IMG/VR virus record: IMGVR_UViG_3300037722_000708
Span: 6,001 to 70,000 of that record
Reading direction: 5' to 3' (one strand)
DNA length: 64,000 nucleotides
DNA from: a virus
Taxonomy: Duplodnaviria > Caudoviricetes
Below the pieces are notes generated by a model. The model was not told the origin of the DNA and did no database searches. It saw only the letters and a list, made by a program, of their open reading frames with translations. The stretch's first letter is position 1, and every line of letters begins with the position of its first letter. Shown here in pieces: positions 8,392 to 58,520 of this stretch. The position numbers and the translations under genes are program-made.

Positions 8392-8867
8392 GCTCTCAAC
8401 AATGAGTTAGCTGTTACCATAGGACCCAGTAGAGCATAAATATGCGTCATAACAGATCCACCCCTTAGACGAGCGGCGGCGTCGTACTCAACCTCTATAA
8501 CGTCTACCTTCTCTTTAGTTACCGCGACATCATCCACCAGTATCCCCTCTAAGTCATAGGTACCGTCTCGGAAAATGTCTGCCATAATATACATAGCTTC
8601 CTTAACTTTTAGGGGAGCTCCGTCCTCACCAACTTGATAGCCATCGTCGTCGTATGCAAGATCACGCGGCCAAGAAAGCCTCTGATCTTCTGTGGATTTT
8701 TTCCCTCTAAAACGAAACTCTCTGTCGATCCAATCAGTGGCTTTTATCATATACACTTCTTTATCTGCAGTGTCCAGTGCCGCCCAGTCCGTGTTAGCGC
8801 GTTCTAACCAGTAAGCGTCTGTGTTAGCCAGTGTGTCGTAAACATTTGTCCCAACGGTAACGGCCAT
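8388..8867 (-). CDS. Head-tail adaptor (DnaT-like ssDNA-binding family)
   Basis: KATDWID..F.FRGKK....QRLSWPRD and EKVDVIEVEY motifs. Confidence 0.75.
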   Translation of the reverse strand: MAVTVGTNVYDTLANTDAYWLERANTDWAALDTADKEVYMIKATDWIDREFRFRGKKSTEDQRLSWPRDLAYDDDGYQVGEDGAPLKVKEAMYIMADIFRDGTYDLEGILVDDVAVTKEKVDVIEVEYDAAARLRGGSVMTHIYALLGPMVTANSLLRA

Positions 8868-9340
8868 TAGTGGACTCCTTGTGCTGTAGTTAGTTGAGCA
8901 ACAGCAGACTTAATAGAAGCAAGAGCGTCTCGTGTTTGCTGGATTGTTTCTTTATTTTCTCTTGAAGATAGTTCAGTTGCTTGGATCCTCAATGCATAAG
9001 GTTGTATCTCTGAAAGGAAGACTTCTTTAGACTTACTTTCAGTTTTTTCGTACTTGTCCGTGAGCGCTGTTATACTATCTTTGACTGAGACCAAGGTGGC
9101 AGTAGTAGCAGCAGACTGTATTTGTACCGCTTGTAAAGTAGAAGCCACATATAAAATACCCGCTACACATAAAGCAATACCGACCTTCATAGCCGTATCG
9201 ATAAAAGAAACTTCTGAGGTTTTTAAGTAAGCAGTGGATTGCTGCCGAGGAATACACTCGGTGAGCTTTCTTATGTGCTCGCTCGTTTCTTGTTGTGCGT
9301 TGATAAGCTCGCGAATGTGATCTGTCATAACAATCCCCAA
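8867..9340 (-). CDS. Hypothetical membrane-anchored coiled-coil protein
   Basis: One hydrophobic segment (VGIALCVAGILYVA) followed by a helical region. Confidence 0.6.
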   Translation of the reverse strand: MGIVMTDHIRELINAQQETSEHIRKLTECIPRQQSTAYLKTSEVSFIDTAMKVGIALCVAGILYVASTLQAVQIQSAATTATLVSVKDSITALTDKYEKTESKSKEVFLSEIQPYALRIQATELSSRENKETIQQTRDALASIKSAVAQLTTAQGVH

Positions 9341-9343
9341 TAA

Positions 9344-9372
9344 AAGGGGCAGCCTAGTGTTAGACGCCCCTT
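9344..9372 (-). terminator. Putative intrinsic terminator
   Basis: AAGGGGC/GCCCCTT inverted repeat with a T-run on the minus strand. Confidence 0.5.
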
Positions 9373-9397
9373 GTTTGTGTGTGCACGCGCCAGAAAA

Positions 9398-9727
9398 TTA
9401 CTTCTTAGCTGCTTTCTTAGCTTCTGCTGCTTCTTTTTCAGCGAGGGCTTTTTCTTCTGCTGCAAGGTCTTCCGCTTGCTTTAGTTTCTTAGCTTCCTCT
9501 GCTGCTTGATCGGCGGCTAGCTTCTTTGTGCGTTTGTCGATAAGCTCTTGCTCTTTCAATTCTTCTTCAGCTGTTTTTTGCTCTCGTAGAGCAATTTCTG
9601 CTGCTGCTTTTGCTTTGTCGAAAGGCTTTAAAAGAGGGTTAGCTTTTAATTGTCTTTTGTCTGCATAACCGAAAAACTTACCATTTTTACTAACAGGAAC
9701 TACATCACTGATATCTGCGTTGGCCAT
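9398..9727 (-). CDS. Hypothetical Lys/Ala/Glu-rich protein downstream of the capsid gene
   Basis: 109 aa ORF with RBS (AGGAG); low-complexity helical tail. Confidence 0.7.
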   Translation of the reverse strand: MANADISDVVPVSKNGKFFGYADKRQLKANPLLKPFDKAKAAAEIALREQKTAEEELKEQELIDKRTKKLAADQAAEEAKKLKQAEDLAAEEKALAEKEAAEAKKAAKK

Positions 9728-9754
9728 TTTATGCTCCTAGAAAAGGTTGAAGAT

Positions 9755-9778
9755 GGAGAGCCACCTAAGCGGCTCTCC
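9755..9778 (-). terminator. Hairpin after major capsid gene
   Basis: GGAGAGCC/GGCTCTCC 8-bp inverted repeat. Confidence 0.5.
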
Positions 9779-9786
9779 TAATTAGA

Positions 9787-11013
9787 TTATGACGATGCTG
9801 CTAGAGTAGCTGCACGTCTTACTTGAGTTGCAAGCATTGGGTCAAGGACCTGCACACCATACAATGCATCAAGCGCAATGTTGTTCTTCGCAGTGTCACC
9901 ATCATACCACATACGAGCACGCACAGACAATCCTGTTACAGGATCAGTTACTGTAGTGATCTCGGCGCCTTTACCGTCTCCAGTCATCGGAAGCGGTGCA
10001 AATGCAAGAGCAAATGCATTGCGGTGGAACATAAGGTTACGAAGGTTGGCAGACTCTTCAATAGCATTCAAAGTTGCGAATGTTACCACAGTAGAGATAG
10101 CCGCCGTCTTGCGCAATGCTGGGTAGAAGGTAAGCGTAGCAGCCCCTGCTATCAGCGTGGCATCAGCAGTCAAGATGTACACTGTAGGATCACCTGTGAC
10201 TACGAAGGTGTCACCAATCTTGAGTGTCTCTGTACCTGTACCATTCTCAACTGCCATAGTTGCAACGTTTGCCAATACCTCTGCTGTCACACTAAATGCA
10301 GTATCGCCGCCAGCTGTGGACGCTGTTGCTGTGGACGTCATAGTGGGTCCAGAAACATCAGCATTCTGAGTTGCGAACACTTCTACTCCAAAACGTTCAC
10401 CAAGTGAGCCGTTCATAAGAGCTGCTGTGTTGTTACCCTCACCAGTGATACGTGCCTCATGGAAGATACCCATATCAAGGAAAGCAGCTTCAACACCGCT
10501 GTCCACAAGATAGTGCATCATGCCTTGAGTCATTGGCACTTCGTTATCCCGAAGAACTTTACGAGGGCCAGTGATCCAGCTGGATGAAGCTGTTCCAGAA
10601 ATGAAAGCTTTAGGACCTACGTATGCTCCAAGAGCATGTAGATCTTGGTCAATCTTATCTGCAAGAGCGTAAGCTGCTGGTGCAATGTGTTCGCTTACAA
10701 TGCGTTCAGATGAATATGCAATCTCTTGGTCATTAAGTCCGAATTTTACTTCTTTCCAGCTGTCCAGTGTGATCTGCACGTTTTGACCTGTTACATCTTG
10801 CGCTGTAGAACCCGTATTGGGTGTGTGGGTCTTCGCTACAAAATGAGAAGGTCTGCGAATGTTGATCGTATCGCCAAGCGCTCGACCAGTAGTGTTCCGT
10901 TCAATTTCTGCCCCGCGGTGAACTCGGCCAGCCATGCCTAATGCTTTAAACAGCTGGATAAGAGCCTCGTTAGCAAAAAAAGTCGGATTGTAGTTTCCAA
11001 GAATGTTAGCCAT
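9787..11013 (-). CDS. Major capsid protein (P22 coat-like, with insertion domain)
   Basis: GDTINIRRP, FHRNAFALAFAPL and LDALYGVQVLDP motifs; follows scaffold. Confidence 0.9.
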   Translation of the reverse strand: MANILGNYNPTFFANEALIQLFKALGMAGRVHRGAEIERNTTGRALGDTINIRRPSHFVAKTHTPNTGSTAQDVTGQNVQITLDSWKEVKFGLNDQEIAYSSERIVSEHIAPAAYALADKIDQDLHALGAYVGPKAFISGTASSSWITGPRKVLRDNEVPMTQGMMHYLVDSGVEAAFLDMGIFHEARITGEGNNTAALMNGSLGERFGVEVFATQNADVSGPTMTSTATASTAGGDTAFSVTAEVLANVATMAVENGTGTETLKIGDTFVVTGDPTVYILTADATLIAGAATLTFYPALRKTAAISTVVTFATLNAIEESANLRNLMFHRNAFALAFAPLPMTGDGKGAEITTVTDPVTGLSVRARMWYDGDTAKNNIALDALYGVQVLDPMLATQVRRAATLAASS

Positions 11014-11061
11014 TGTATTTCTCCATACTTTATTTTTGCGTTAAAAATGTACGGGAAGCGA

Positions 11062-11841
11062 TTAGCCTTCTACGATCTGAAGTGTTGTACCAGCTTTTTG
11101 TGCAGCTTCTTTTGCTGCTTGGTAGGTACGAGGGTTCTGAGCCTCTGTCTTCGTAATCGAGTAAGCCGATCCTTTTCCGCCTTGTCCGCCTCCAGCGCCA
11201 ATACCTGAAGAACCAGGATACCAATGAGGGGCTTTCTCTTTCATGTTATCAAGCCACTCTGCAACTGTTAGCGGGTCTTTTCCGCTTTTACCAATAATCA
11301 ATGCACCATTGCCATCACGAGCAACAAGGTTGTCTTTATCATCAAGAGTGAACGTTTGTTTAGCTCTGTAGATGACATCTTCAATGGCGGTTGGGACTAT
11401 TCCAAGTTTGGATGCTGCTTGTCGTACATTGCTGTCTACAATTAGCGTCTTTACTTTGGTATCCTTCTCTCCAAGGCCTGTTTCCAATTCTGATATTTTG
11501 CTCGTCGCTGCTTCAAGTTTTTTCTCGTAGTCGCTTTTAAGCGCTTCTACACGCTTCGAGATGACTTCGTCGATCTTTCCCTCAGCAATAAGCTTCGTAT
11601 CTTCGTCGTTTGCCATTTTGTCCAGCAAAGCAGTTACTTGCTTCTGGTCAAAACCAGACCATTGTTTTTCCATTTCAGTTAATTTTTCAGCAAGCGCTTT
11701 TTTCTCTGCAAGGATCTCGTTGTTCTTTGTAGAGAGGCCACCTGTTGCTGCTTTAACTGCCTCGTTAATCATTTCCTGAATTCTTGGATCCTTAGGATCG
11801 AGTTCAGCACCTTCGCCTCCAGCGTTGGATTCTCCTGGCAT
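11062..11841 (-). CDS. Capsid scaffolding protein
   Basis: Coiled coil with LIAEGKIDEV and EW...MKEKAPHWYP..SG.GA.G motifs; precedes MCP. Confidence 0.8.
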   Translation of the reverse strand: MPGESNAGGEGAELDPKDPRIQEMINEAVKAATGGLSTKNNEILAEKKALAEKLTEMEKQWSGFDQKQVTALLDKMANDEDTKLIAEGKIDEVISKRVEALKSDYEKKLEAATSKISELETGLGEKDTKVKTLIVDSNVRQAASKLGIVPTAIEDVIYRAKQTFTLDDKDNLVARDGNGALIIGKSGKDPLTVAEWLDNMKEKAPHWYPGSSGIGAGGGQGGKGSAYSITKTEAQNPRTYQAAKEAAQKAGTTLQIVEG

Positions 11842-26233: not shown

Positions 26234-26265
26234 AATATTATACAATAACTAAGTTATAATTGCAA
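26234..26265 (-). promoter_or_regulatory. sigma70 promoter with palindromic operator (26245-26257)
   Basis: TTGCAA-17-TATAAT; the spacer contains ATAACTTAGTTAT. Confidence 0.85.
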
Positions 26266-27414
26266 GTTTTTCATTTTTACTTTTATTGTAGACAGCGCCT
26301 CAGAAACAGCCTCCTGCACTATGTCCCTGTCCCCTGCGGCAATAACACAGCCAACGCGCTCCCTTGAGCTCTTCACAGCATCAACCTTGTGACCCGCCTT
26401 ATAGAACACTCGTGCATGAGCTATACCCTCTATCCTCAAAGCCTCGTCCACCCCCGTTATTTCCTCAATTACGCCCGGTTGCACAGTGAGAAACTGTATT
26501 TGCACAATGTCAGCCGCCCCGACCCCTTTGTGCCCTTGTGCCATTCCACAGGCAAGGCGGATGGTGGCGTCTGCCATATCAAAGCCAGTTGCGAGTTTAA
26601 CCAGCCTTGGGTCCTCACCCCCAGATATCCTTGGCATGCACTCGATTATGTAGAAACCATCGGCTCCAAGTATCAGTTGGGCGTAAATAGGGCAATTAGC
26701 ATATCCAAGAGCAGTGCAGGCACGCCCAAGTATCAGTTCAAGGTTTTCGTCGCCAAGGTCTAAGTGCTTGTCATATGTTTTTGTCAGTGCAACGCCGAAC
26801 GTCTGGTCAGACAGGCGGCTGCCATCTCTTATGGCGGCTGTGTACAGCTTAAAGACCCCATCTGTCACAAAGCCATTAACTCCCACCTCCACCCCCTCTA
26901 TGAATTCTTGAATGATAGCGATCCCCGACTCAGATGCCCCCTGAGCCACCTTTATCGCCTCTTGCAATCCGTCGATATCCACAAAAGACACGCCCGTCTG
27001 CCCTATCCCATCCACAGGTTTTACCACAAAAGGCGCGCATAAGTCCACCACAGCGTCTCCATACACAGAGCGCGGTACCTTTAAACCTGCCTGGTGCAGG
27101 ATCTCGCGCGTCCGGCCTTTCTGCATCGGCAACTCTGCAACCTCAGGTGACACATATGCTTTTAATCCGTGCATCTTGGCATATTTGGCCATAATGTAGA
27201 CCGCTTTATCAGAGCCTCCAGACACCACAGCATCAAAACCGGTCAGTTGCACAATAGTCTCGTAATCGTACCTGTTACAACTGACCACTTCATGGGCGAG
27301 GTCCGAGGCTTCAAGGCCCCTCTCGTCCACCACTGTGACATGCAACCCAAGATCAAGTGCGGCCTCAACCAAAGGCAATTGCGCCTGCCCGCCTCCTATA
27401 ATAAGCAGCTTCAT
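26254..27414 (-). CDS. ATP-grasp amide ligase (CPS-like, polysaccharide-cluster type)
   Basis: IIGGG..Q, VVKPVDG.G..GV, IQEFIEG.E and IIECMPRISGG motifs. Confidence 0.85.
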   Translation of the reverse strand: MKLLIIGGGQAQLPLVEAALDLGLHVTVVDERGLEASDLAHEVVSCNRYDYETIVQLTGFDAVVSGGSDKAVYIMAKYAKMHGLKAYVSPEVAELPMQKGRTREILHQAGLKVPRSVYGDAVVDLCAPFVVKPVDGIGQTGVSFVDIDGLQEAIKVAQGASESGIAIIQEFIEGVEVGVNGFVTDGVFKLYTAAIRDGSRLSDQTFGVALTKTYDKHLDLGDENLELILGRACTALGYANCPIYAQLILGADGFYIIECMPRISGGEDPRLVKLATGFDMADATIRLACGMAQGHKGVGAADIVQIQFLTVQPGVIEEITGVDEALRIEGIAHARVFYKAGHKVDAVKSSRERVGCVIAAGDRDIVQEAVSEALSTIKVKMKNLQL

Positions 27415-27941
27415 TCCGCCTCCAATATGTGTACAAGGTTTGCTGCTCGCTCGTTAGTGCTCCTCAAAGCAGCGGATACGTCTATAAGTTTTCCGTATGG
27501 AAAGGCGGCTAAGAACAGCTCTGGATCCACCTCGCAAATAGCGGCTAGTGTTTTGACAGTCGAGTCGTGTGTAACAATGACAGCCGGTTCTTTTACGCTG
27601 TTGAGGAAGTCTCTTGTCCTGTTTAGAACGTCAAGATAATTCTCGCCTCCCTGAGGCCGTTTGAAGAACTTGTCTCTAAGTGTGACGTTCTTAGGCTTAT
27701 CCCTCAATGCCCCATAACTTTTGGCGCAAAGTCTTACATCTGTCTCATACTCAGCTGTAATCAACTGCACCGTCTGCTGTGCTCTTGGCTGTGGCGACGC
27801 AAACACCTTCATAGCGTGTTTTTTAAGGAAACCTCTTGCCTCTTTTACAAGGTCCACCGCCCCCTCTTTTATAGGGGTGTCGTCGTCGCAGTACACATTA
27901 GTGTTTTCTGGTGGCGCGTGCCTAATTGCGAATAGCTTCAT
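27411..27941 (-). CDS. Histidine phosphatase (phosphoglycerate mutase-like)
   Basis: IRHA, FASPQPRAQQT, GGEN and VIVTHD motifs. Confidence 0.85.
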   Translation of the reverse strand: MKLFAIRHAPPENTNVYCDDDTPIKEGAVDLVKEARGFLKKHAMKVFASPQPRAQQTVQLITAEYETDVRLCAKSYGALRDKPKNVTLRDKFFKRPQGGENYLDVLNRTRDFLNSVKEPAVIVTHDSTVKTLAAICEVDPELFLAAFPYGKLIDVSAALRSTNERAANLVHILEAE

Positions 27942-28734
27942 AAAATGCTCCTATCTTTTTCATGGCTATAGCAGCTCGCCTTTGCGAACTTATGGTTGAG
28001 CGCCCTGCTATGTGTGGGGTGGTTACAACATCTTTGTGCTGCAAATCGTTCTCAAAGTCGCATACATATTTCCGTATATGACCAAGAAACGGCACTATGT
28101 TGTCACTCACCACTTCTTTACGTGCAACATTTATAAGCACAGATCCTTTTTTCATTTGTTCAAACTGCTTTTTATCGAGAAAATTTCTCGTCTCGTCGTT
28201 TAAGCTAAGATGAATGGACACCACATCACATCGCTCAAGCAACTCGTTCAAAGACACTTTTTCCATGTCACGCCGCGTTGATACAAGCACATTGAAGCCC
28301 ATGCCTCGCATCAAGCTCGCGGTTTCTGTGCCTGTGCTGCCCATGCCTATGACGCCCACTGTCATCTCACAAGGTTCCTTTGGGATGGTGTGTTCGTCAA
28401 CTAAGTCTAAGCCGCGCCCATAATACATTGTGAAGGACAGCACGTAATATGCAATTGGGATGCCTGCACAGTTTTCGCATATCTCAAGTTGGATGTTTTT
28501 TCGCGTCAAATACTGTGTGTCCACATTGTCAAGGCCAACACCAAAGCGCATGACCATCTTTAAATTTGGGAATTTGTTTATTGTTTGTTCGTCTAAGACA
28601 TCATTGCCGAGAATTATGGTATCGTGGTCGAACACTTTTGTGTCTAGACAAGTATTAAAGTCTTTCTCCCCGTCTAGATCGCTAAGAAACTGCTTGTTTG
28701 CTTTTAGCGATCCAGGTGTCACTAGTGTTTTCAT
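27922..28734 (-). CDS. D-isomer-specific 2-hydroxyacid dehydrogenase (SerA-like)
   Basis: RFGVGLDNVD, GVIGMGSTG, INVAR and TTPHIAG motifs. Confidence 0.9.
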   Translation of the reverse strand: MKTLVTPGSLKANKQFLSDLDGEKDFNTCLDTKVFDHDTIILGNDVLDEQTINKFPNLKMVMRFGVGLDNVDTQYLTRKNIQLEICENCAGIPIAYYVLSFTMYYGRGLDLVDEHTIPKEPCEMTVGVIGMGSTGTETASLMRGMGFNVLVSTRRDMEKVSLNELLERCDVVSIHLSLNDETRNFLDKKQFEQMKKGSVLINVARKEVVSDNIVPFLGHIRKYVCDFENDLQHKDVVTTPHIAGRSTISSQRRAAIAMKKIGAFYEAIRN

Positions 28735-28764
28735 TTCCTGCTCCTGATTATGACAATGTTATAT

Positions 28765-28795
28765 TATGATAGTACAACTTAGTTATAATTGCAAG
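28765..28795 (-). promoter_or_regulatory. sigma70 promoter with operator (28774-28786, 1 mismatch)
   Basis: TTGCAA-17-TATCAT; ACAACTTAGTTAT. Confidence 0.75.
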
Positions 28796-28799
28796 TTTC

Positions 28800-29180
28800 T
28801 CATGACTGGTATTTGCCATACCCTTTAGGGTCAGCTTTTATCAGAGCAAGACGAAGGTCCTCACGCACCCATCCATATGCATGGAGAGAGTGCCTTAGAT
28901 CGGCGCCCGAGTAAGGAGAAGGGGCGCCGGTACGTCTGCGTTCCTCGCCCTCTCTCAGTATTTTAAAGATGAATTCTGCGGCGTCTCTGTGCTCTTTGTT
29001 CTTGTAGCCCCTTAAAGACATTGCCGCGTCCCTGTCGGATTCCGCCACTCCCATGTCAAATGATGCACCAGTGCCTCTCTTGGGTTTGAAGCCCGTCCCA
29101 TCGCAAGCATCGCACACGTAAGTATTAAACATGACCTTCCCCGTCCCAAGGCATACAGGACACCTAGTCGTCATAGACAT
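28800..29180 (-). CDS. DnaJ-type Zn-finger hypothetical protein
   Basis: CPVCLGTG and CDACDGTG repeats. Confidence 0.7.
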   Translation of the reverse strand: MSMTTRCPVCLGTGKVMFNTYVCDACDGTGFKPKRGTGASFDMGVAESDRDAAMSLRGYKNKEHRDAAEFIFKILREGEERRRTGAPSPYSGADLRHSLHAYGWVREDLRLALIKADPKGYGKYQS

Positions 29181-34804: not shown

Positions 34805-34833
34805 TTTTAGTATAACTTACTTATTTTTACAAG
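34805..34833 (-). promoter_or_regulatory. rtcB promoter with operator (34812-34824, 1 mismatch)
   Basis: TTGTAA-17-TAAAAT; ATAACTTACTTAT. Confidence 0.7.
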
Positions 34834-57134: not shown

Positions 57135-58520
57135 TTAGTCTATAAGATGCATGAACTCAGCACGGCAATCAGGCTCGTTGCGTATAGCGCCTCGTAGAGC
57201 AGAGGTTACCGTGTGACTGCCAGCTGTCTTAACTCCGCGAGACTCCATACACAGATGCCTACAATTGAGGATTACGCCTACACCTACAGGGTTAAGCTCG
57301 TTGACGAGGGCGTCTGCAATTTGATTGGTGAGACGTTCTTGCACTTGAAGTCGGCGAGAGTAGACATTGACCAGCCGGCTGAGTTTTGACAAACCCACAA
57401 TCTTTTTGTGAGGAATATACCCAATATGAGCCACCCCAAAGAAAGGTGCAATGTGGTGCTCGCAATTATGCACCGCTATGCCATTTGCAAAGAACGTTTT
57501 AGTCTCTGGAACAGTCATACACCACACGTCTTCTTTGTAGTCGAGTTTCTCCACGCCTAGTACAATGTGGTTGGCAGCTAATTTTCCTTTGCTAGTGGCT
57601 GCACCTCGTATTTTTCGATCCTCAGGGGATAAGTTGTCCCAGTATGCTTTAACGCTTTCCGAACGTTTTTTCCTTACGTCGAGTCTTTTCGACGATTCTG
57701 CTACGGACTTTAAACGATTTTCATTACTAGCTAGCTTTTCAGTTCGTTTATGTTTTTTGTTGTGTTCGCCAGTTGTTAGAGCCTCAAGGTTTTCAGGTGC
57801 ATTATTCCAGCTTAATTCGTCTTCGTGACGCACAACTATGTGCTGCTCGTACGCCAACTCGTGGCCTATTTGACCCAGCACGAAACGGTGCTCAGGTAAA
57901 GTGCCTTTCTCACCATTGATAAGTAAGTTATCAGCTTTCTTTTTATGCGTGAGGTTAGCTAGCAGAGTTGGGTATACTTGCCGGCCGGTATCGAGAACGC
58001 CTCTATACAAGGAACAAAGCCTGTCTCCTGGTTGTAAGTTTTGAGCTTCTACAAATTCTCCGGAGACTAGCAAGATTCTGTGGTCGGGTGTACATATCAG
58101 CGCATCGTTGTCCGTGTATAAACGGACAAGACCTGCGTCTTTTTGGGTAACACGAGGGTGCTCTGCTTGTGTTAAAGATAACTCTTTGGTTTGCGGATCT
58201 ACTGTGTAAACCCAGTCCTTATGCTTCAAATGTTTTATTGGAACACGTCCTTTAGGAGTCTCGACAAAAGTAGAACCTACTACACAATGGCTCCAAACTG
58301 GGATGTCTTTAACAAGCACAATCTGATCGCAGCCTTCAGCCCCATCCTCGAATACTTTCATGACGTCTTTAGGCTCTTGGGCATAACCTGCGAACCACTC
58401 TCTCCAAGCTTTGGCCACTCGTTTTGGTGTCTCGAGTAGCCCCTCCCGTGTGGGATCATCGCCAAGACGCACCAGCATCTCGTAAACTAATTGCTCGTCT
58501 GTTGCTTCTTCTAATTGCAT
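57135..58520 (-). CDS. folE: GTP cyclohydrolase I with intein (187 aa spliced)
   Basis: REGL.ETP.RVAKAW, SH|[29 protein letters not shown]. Confidence 0.95.
57465..58286 (-). mobile_element. Intein in FolE carrying an HNH-type endonuclease (274 aa)
   Basis: Starts CVVGST, block B CTPDHRI, ends VHN|C; internal EHR...[12 protein letters not shown]....EHNKKH. Confidence 0.88.

Follow-up and report, generated by a model that had tools for sequence, protein, structure and literature searches.

A stretch of 64,000 nucleotides (nt) from a marine-type tailed phage (IMG/VR virus record IMGVR_UViG_3300037722_000708; hereafter the window) carries three overlapping genes for a 2-hydroxyacid dehydrogenase (DH), a histidine phosphatase (HP) and an ATP-grasp ligase (AG). 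The window comprises bases 6001–70000 of a 70-kb record that is estimated to be about 90% complete. Together they form a mobile three-enzyme cassette that came from bacteria and that at least two related phages maintain behind a phage operator. Its most likely role is to convert a phosphorylated 2-oxo or hydroxy acid into a D-2-hydroxy acid, which is then ligated to an amine supplied by the host.

Organisation and conservation of the cassette

The genes of the operon and its control sites are arranged as follows.

27922..28734, minus strand: DH, D-isomer 2-hydroxyacid dehydrogenase family, 270 amino acids (aa); Pfam 2-Hacid_dh_C 4.7e-27, 2-Hacid_dh 1.6e-10
27411..27941, minus strand: HP, histidine phosphatase superfamily branch 1, 176 aa; Pfam His_Phos_1 5.5e-10
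26254..27414, minus strand: AG, ATP-grasp carboxylate ligase of the L-amino-acid-ligase (LAL) type, 386 aa; Pfam ATP-grasp_3 1.2e-08, LAL_C2 2e-16
28766..28794, minus strand: sigma-70-like promoter of the operon, TTGCAA-17-TATCAT; 9/12 matches in a consensus scan, a consensus-level assignment only
28774..28786, no strand assigned: 13-bp palindromic operator with one mismatch, ACAACTTAGTTAT, overlapping the DH promoter; a copy of ATAACTNAGTTAT

All of the Pfam domains in the three proteins exceed their curated cut-offs. The ends of DH and HP overlap by 20 nt and those of HP and AG by 4 nt, a Shine-Dalgarno-like sequence is present at each of the three starts, and a consensus scan found no minus-strand promoter-like or terminator-like site inside DH, HP or AG. 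An initial annotation of this DNA had described three overlapping genes behind one promoter, and the reading frames, their overlaps, the single sigma-70-like site and the lack of internal sites confirm that description.

Eleven AG loci with readable context (L004 and L084–L093) were compared. HP adjoins AG in nine of the eleven, and DH is present in seven. The closest counterpart is a phage-like contig (L084) that carries DH, HP, AG and a zur-like gene in the same order as the window, at 71, 73, 72 and 41% identity respectively. Perfect operators are found at both equivalent places (61–73 and 2600–2612), and the layout TTGCAA-operator-TATAAT occurs twice. The shared gene order, together with the perfect operators at equivalent positions, therefore indicates that L084 represents a second phage with the same regulatory system. 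Two bacterial loci (L085/L086) contain an AsnB-like gene and a pyridoxal phosphate (PLP)-dependent decarboxylase gene of the Orn/DAP/Arg type, followed by DH, HP and AG (44, 53 and 55% identity), and in L091 the three genes are followed by a major facilitator superfamily (MFS) transporter and a second phosphatase.

In three further loci, one from a Gracilibacteria metagenome-assembled genome (MAG), a single protein of 461–463 aa containing both 2-Hacid_dh_C and His_Phos_1 domains is encoded directly upstream of the AG homologue. These DH-HP fusion proteins lie at:

L004 (Gracilibacteria MAG): 8566-9957
L088: 493-1884
L089: 1518-2903

The fusion family, of about 460 aa, comprises about 24 clusters, almost all metagenomic. 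The gene fusion and the repeated adjacency are good evidence that DH, HP and AG serve one pathway. The treatment of the three genes as one unit in the initial annotation thus holds, given the conserved cassette, the copy in a second phage and the bacterial fusions. The arrangement varies in the remaining loci: the phosphatase comes after the ligase in L087 and L090, and the two proteins encoded upstream of the ligase in L090 had no match in Pfam or the PDB. Neither DH nor HP accompanies the ligase in L092 or in L093, a copy on an Acidiphilium multivorum plasmid (NZ_CP041720.1, 112117-116323). The L093 gene is a stand-alone ligase of the clade directly downstream of a gene for an 876-aa SMC/LmuB-like ATPase, in a region rich in insertion sequence elements and toxin-antitoxin genes; the L091 ligase is nearly identical to it. 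Two relatives lie near LmuB-like or Avs-like genes, which we treated as a coincidence with mobile islands. Neither the three cassette proteins nor the L004 fusion protein matched any PADLOC defence family at E <= 0.01.

When viral collections were searched for the ligase or the dehydrogenase, no relative of the clade appeared, although the window's own record or a very near one may be left out of these collections. A scan of IMG/VR for the combined operator and promoter pattern gave three contigs, but neither the DNA polymerase nor AG is shared by any of them, so they were set aside as probable chance matches. The GC contents of AG (51.6%), HP (48.0%) and DH (43.3%), compared with 45.4 +/- 2.3% for the other genes, do not settle whether the cassette was acquired recently.

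The palindrome ATAACTNAGTTAT occurs eight times in the window, where 0.14 copies would be expected by chance, at positions 26245, 28774, 29591, 34812, 37108, 39267, 45962 and 57919. A promoter and operator nearly identical to those of DH occupy 26265-26237, where they start the following unit, whose last gene is of the Fur/Zur family; this promoter marks the 3' end of the operon.

26237..26265, minus strand: following promoter, TTGCAA-17-TATAAT, with a perfect operator at 26245-26257; overlaps the AG stop codon
25688..26080, minus strand: Fur/Zur-family regulator gene; Pfam FUR 1.1e-06, NCBIfam Zur 2.6e-17, the latter below its cut-off

Fur-family boxes have a 7-1-7 layout, which the 6-1-6 layout of ATAACTNAGTTAT resembles, and the palindrome travels with the Fur/Zur-family gene in both the window phage and L084. 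Because of this co-occurrence in two phages and the Fur-like layout, the phage Fur-family protein is a candidate repressor acting at ATAACTNAGTTAT, with a regulon that would include the cassette. By position, the operator copies at 34812 and 37108 lie just upstream of rtcB and of a 246-aa gene (36340-37080) respectively. Just upstream of the operon, a 126-aa protein encoded at 28800-29180 has a CxxC zinc-finger N-terminus and weak matches to DnaJ-CXXCXGXG, anti-TRAP and Q-like antiterminator models.

The three encoded enzymes

DH scored 94.9 bits against a cut-off of 25.1 for PF02826 and 41.2 against 24.6 for PF00389. It keeps the GxGxxG loop and the catalytic Arg, acidic and His positions, and its GMGSTG, NVAR, CDF-EN and TPHIAG motifs align to the matching positions of the phosphoglycerate dehydrogenase (PGDH) structures 2ekl and 1wwk; by sequence, its best solved relatives are short phosphoglycerate dehydrogenases. 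In PGDH an RS..K motif binds phosphate and an acidic residue binds the NAD ribose. Where 2ekl and 1wwk have 'vrSRTKVT' and 'vrSKPKVT' (the Arg-Ser...Lys/Thr phosphate-binding motif), DH has 'LGNDVLD', and where they have 'VLAYD' and 'ILLYD', containing the acidic NAD-ribose residue, DH has 'VLVSTRRD'. The best NCBIfam scores for DH were 90–98 bits against equivalog cut-offs of 389–454, so that no equivalog cut-off was reached; the SerA models scored 90.3 bits against 454 (TIGR01327) and 60.7 against 404 (PRK11790). Because DH has neither the phosphate-binding motif of PGDH nor its acidic NAD-ribose residue, we read it as a probable NADP(H)-dependent 2-oxo-acid reductase and not as SerA. On the motif evidence, a role in serine supply was set aside. 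The term 'SerA-like' in the initial annotation therefore stands at the level of the 2-hydroxyacid dehydrogenase family only, and the assignment of 3-phosphoglycerate as substrate found no support.

The histidine phosphatase identity of HP was upheld: it scored 39.7 bits against a cut-off of 21.7 for PF00300, and the catalytic RH, Arg, Glu and second His are kept in the motifs IRHA, PRAQQT, GGENY and VTHDS, which are conserved across the clade. The best solved relatives in a profile search were PhoE, TIGAR, CobC, the phosphoserine phosphatase PspA and glucosyl-3-phosphoglycerate phosphatase. By sequence, HP thus resembles small-molecule phosphatases.

AG scored 35.7 bits against a cut-off of 23.2 for PF02655 and 60.5 against 29.4 for PF18603. 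Its close relatives form 27 clusters, with 31–72% identity, among 5.8 billion proteins. Across 27 homologues, 29 columns are invariant; K132, E176, Q246, E258, R262 and G265-G266 are among the invariant residues and E170 is nearly so, and we infer nucleotide- and Mg-binding roles for these conserved positions. The best profile matches were the uncharacterised protein 4dim (4e-45) and the L-amino acid ligase BL00235 (PDB 3vot; 1e-36), followed by CPSase, PurD and PurT, while pairwise similarity was low (E 2e-11 and 9e-08). AG shares the ATP-grasp fold and LAL_C2 with 4dim and with L-amino acid ligases of the BL00235, BacD and RizA type, which are also its best matches by sequence. In a maximum-likelihood tree, the AG clade carrying HP and/or DH had 100/100 support, and the phage protein grouped with L084 and then with L086. 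In the ESM Atlas, some proteins that structurally resemble AG are fused to Bac_transf, GT2 or FMN_dh, the last being a domain of alpha-hydroxy-acid oxidoreductases; they serve as leads only. The gene contexts, with DH and HP in this clade and RmlB- and DegT-like genes in its sister clade, suggest substrates other than two L-amino acids. The amide-forming ATP-grasp enzyme of the initial annotation is accordingly an ATP-grasp protein of the LAL type with an intact core, for which amide formation is the predicted activity.

Proposed pathway and its alternatives

In the pathway that we propose, the cassette would supply an acyl donor and then ligate the acyl group. DH would reduce a 2-oxo acid from host central metabolism to a D-2-hydroxy acid, and HP would strip the phosphate from the precursor or the product of DH. 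In the simplest case this would yield glycerate from a phosphorylated C3 acid; a 3-deoxy-aldonic acid is an alternative suggested by the order DAHP-synthase-like gene, DH, HP, AG in L091. AG would then activate the carboxylate as an acyl phosphate and join it to an amine, or possibly to a hydroxyl. Since the 70-kb phage record contains no PEP mutase (phosphoenolpyruvate mutase; PF13714), DegT or epimerase/dehydratase gene, the acceptor would be supplied by the host, with an amino sugar, as a nucleotide sugar or in an envelope glycan, as the first candidate and a free small amine or amino acid as the next. The initial annotation had already suggested a D-hydroxy acid that is amide-linked to an amine; this logic fits the NADP(H)-type signature of DH and the intact catalytic residues of all three enzymes, and its product and acceptor stay conditional.

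The clue to the acceptor comes from a sister clade of AG (about 33% identical), found mostly in Thermoleophilia and also in other MAGs. Its loci (L005–L083, with the ligase around position 10001–11100 of each) are among the matches listed in a scan of genome contigs. Among these listed matches, a gene for an RmlB-like dTDP-glucose 4,6-dehydratase lies no more than 300 nt upstream of the ligase in 70 of 79 loci, and a DegT/DnrJ/EryC1 aminotransferase homologue no more than 300 nt downstream in 65 of 79; both are within 3 kb in 52 of the 55 loci with full flanks. No DH or HP was found near the ligases in the loci listed. A dehydratase and a DegT aminotransferase together form a classic route to amino-deoxy sugars, and because the ligase is flanked by genes of this route, the sister-clade enzyme is predicted to be an ATP-dependent N-acylase of an amino-deoxy sugar. 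These flanks, together with the AG look-alike fusions, give indirect support to the sugar alternative (of the O-antigen type) that the initial annotation had mentioned. We tentatively put an amino sugar first as the acceptor, and this is our best explanation overall.

Several points weigh against it. The sister clade is separated from the cassette ligases by a long branch, and its acceptor may differ. L091, with its MFS exporter and phosphonate-like operon, and L086, with its AsnB-like protein and PLP decarboxylase, look more like free small-molecule pathways. In the fused forms the DH domain is very divergent, with Arg replaced by Lys in some and no catalytic His in L089, and may not work as a reductase everywhere. 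Alternatively, by analogy with Campylobacter jejuni (see below), ligation could come first and HP could then remove the phosphate of a phosphorylated amine. Nor does the model explain why the decoration of a host sugar would profit a siphophage. The analysis establishes the gene structure, the protein families, the intact catalytic motifs, the conservation of the cassette, the fusions and the gene contexts; all substrates, the sequence of reactions and the role in infection are inferred, as sequences reveal no substrate.

A close second, possible if on balance unlikely, is that the cassette instead makes a free small molecule with which host or competitors are manipulated, such as a hydroxyacyl- or aminoacyl-amide or -ester, an antimetabolite, or a phosphonopeptide- or osmolyte-like compound. 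AG would then be a true L-amino-acid-ligase-type enzyme acting on soluble substrates, in keeping with its LAL_C2 domain and with BL00235 as its best match of known function among solved proteins. The L091 cassette belongs to a same-strand operon (L091:77-12926) that starts with the large and small subunits of an aconitase, a PEP-mutase-family protein, a DapB_N-like protein and a second 2-hydroxyacid dehydrogenase, and continues with Iso_dh, an unknown protein, a class-II DAHP synthase or similar protein, DH, HP, AG, the MFS transporter and the second phosphatase. This looks like an undescribed phosphonate-type gene cluster or free natural-product pathway. The AsnB-like and PLP decarboxylase genes of L086 point the same way, and stand-alone cassettes of two or three genes (L004, L088 and L089) must draw on common metabolites. 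ATP-grasp ligases of phosphonate clusters are read as peptide-forming (PMC8942020). However, neither the phage nor L084 has an exporter or another tailoring gene, and the sister clade and structural relatives of AG point to sugars. The signature of PEP mutase is EDK-X5-NS (PMC8942020), from which the EEK-X5-NS of the L091 homologue differs by one residue.

A different order of reactions is known from the C. jejuni HS:2 capsule, where the ATP-grasp domain Cj1438C forms the glucuronamide, using serinol phosphate or ethanolamine phosphate, and the phosphatase Cj1435 acts afterwards; Cj1437 also belongs to this module (PMC11800379). By this model, DH would help to make a phosphorylated amine (phosphoserine, ethanolamine phosphate or similar), AG would form an amide between this amine and a carboxylate, for example that of a uronic acid, and HP would dephosphorylate the product. 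The two systems share ATP-grasp amide formation, a dedicated phosphatase and a small C2/C3 building block derived from phosphorylated metabolites (PMC11800379). The relationship of DH to short phosphoglycerate dehydrogenases and of HP to PspA would suit such a route, and the PLP decarboxylase of L086 could turn phosphoserine into ethanolamine phosphate. We nevertheless consider this order doubtful: with its NADP(H)-type appearance and without the PGDH phosphate motif, DH is ill-suited to 3-phosphoglycerate oxidation, and no aminotransferase gene is present in or beside the phage cassette. In addition, Cj1438C is described as a TupA-like ATP-grasp domain fused to a glycosyltransferase, a family that is not among the Pfam matches of AG, and neither a histidine phosphatase nor a 2-hydroxyacid dehydrogenase is described in the capsule module (PMC11800379).

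Two remaining proposals place the acyl group on phage DNA. The closest relatives of the phage are the Dinoroseobacter phages R5C and R26L and the Pseudanabaena phage Pan1, whose DNA polymerases share 55% identity with its own. The phage has FolE, QueD, QueE, QueC, QueF and DpdA-like genes at 51.5–60.8 kb, and because of these 7-deazaguanine genes a primary amine in its DNA is plausible. The 461-aa FolE-like GTP cyclohydrolase gene (57135-58520) has an HNH-endonuclease-like stretch at residues 207–271, which suggests an inserted intein or homing element. A separate operon (39306-43041) encodes an Nmad5 protein, a RimK-like ATP-grasp protein, a Methyltransf_24/TylF-like methyltransferase and a GT2 glycosyltransferase, with a further gene that matches a PHROG glycosyltransferase family only and no Pfam family; this operon is a more conventional candidate for making a hypermodified base or a glycan. 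A D-hydroxyacyl group (e.g. glyceroyl) might end on the phage DNA, attached directly to the dPreQ1 aminomethyl group or to a sugar or amino-acid appendage built by the Nmad5/RimK-like operon. We consider this very unlikely; if true, it would exceed every 7-deazaguanine hypermodification known so far in complexity.

The proposal of the initial annotation that the cassette acylates the aminomethyl group of preQ1, free or in phage DNA, to give an N-acyl-dPreQ1 base is the least probable of all. Apart from the 7-deazaguanine genes, it could appeal to the methyl and formyl forms in which N-substituted dPreQ1 occurs in nature (PMC10516641), and to the PurD and PurT-like members of the AG family, which acylate amines on nucleotides. 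However, the ligase was found in none of 129 DpdA-encoding and none of 55 QueF-encoding phage records in INPHARED, including R5C, R26L, Pan1 and the dPreQ1 phage Dp-1, and pattern scans of IMG/VR gave no other viral AG or DH of this clade. The bacterial cassettes sit in settings unrelated to DNA modification. In the Gracilibacteria genome that holds L004, the TGT and QueC families are no guide, since TGT is universal and the QueC matches are weak. The known dPreQ1 tailoring genes are found beside 7-deazaguanine genes (PMC10516641), whereas the cassette lies about 23 kb from them under a different promoter/operator class. DpdM (a methyltransferase) and DpdN (a formyltransferase) would act on the dPreQ1 amine, the acceptor first proposed for the cassette (PMC10516641), but they belong to other enzyme families and their genes adjoin the 7-deazaguanine genes; the main text of that paper makes no mention of ATP-grasp (PMC10516641). 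N-acyl-preQ1 found no positive support, and in our best explanation the cassette stands outside the 7-deazaguanine DNA pathway.

Known systems and significance

ATP-grasp ligases with their own acyl-donor supply are already known from VanHA, capsule amidation and phosphonopeptide pathways. In the VanH-VanA system a D-lactate dehydrogenase makes the hydroxy acid, which a D-Ala-D-Lac ATP-grasp ligase then joins. VanH models match DH at 2e-19, but the score of 70 bits is far from the 540-bit VanH cut-off, and the VanG model scored 16.7 against 495 on AG. AG is of the LAL type and not of the Ddl/VanA type, and the cassette has a phosphatase in place of VanX. No known L-amino acid ligase has both a 2-hydroxyacid dehydrogenase and a histidine phosphatase as partners.

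Phosphonate clusters of the valinophos and phosphonoalamide types are alike by description, in that a phosph(on)o-2-oxo acid is reduced and ATP-grasp ligases add amino acids: a VlpB-type reductase is proposed to reduce phosphonopyruvate, and the adjacent ATP-grasp genes are read as amide-forming (PMC8942020). The L091 cassette comes closest to them, sharing its operon with the PEP-mutase-family gene, aconitase and Iso_dh. The phage differs in lacking PEP mutase, as does the L091 homologue in its departure from the strict signature. A full-text literature search joining the three enzyme terms returned no paper, and the combination of an LAL-type ligase with an NADP(H)-type 2-oxo-acid reductase and a histidine phosphatase, the last two often as one fused protein, is apparently undescribed.

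For the 7-deazaguanine field the outcome is mostly negative, because the cassette is no recurrent partner of dPreQ1 systems. The cassette is rare, with a few dozen clusters in 5.8 billion proteins, and moves between phyla as well as into phages. The phage could gain by remodelling the envelope, by obtaining a metabolite or, less probably, by decorating its DNA in a new way. Once worked out, the product of the cassette would name a new small biosynthetic module, and would also give a function to the Thermoleophilia sister ligases encoded between RmlB and DegT.

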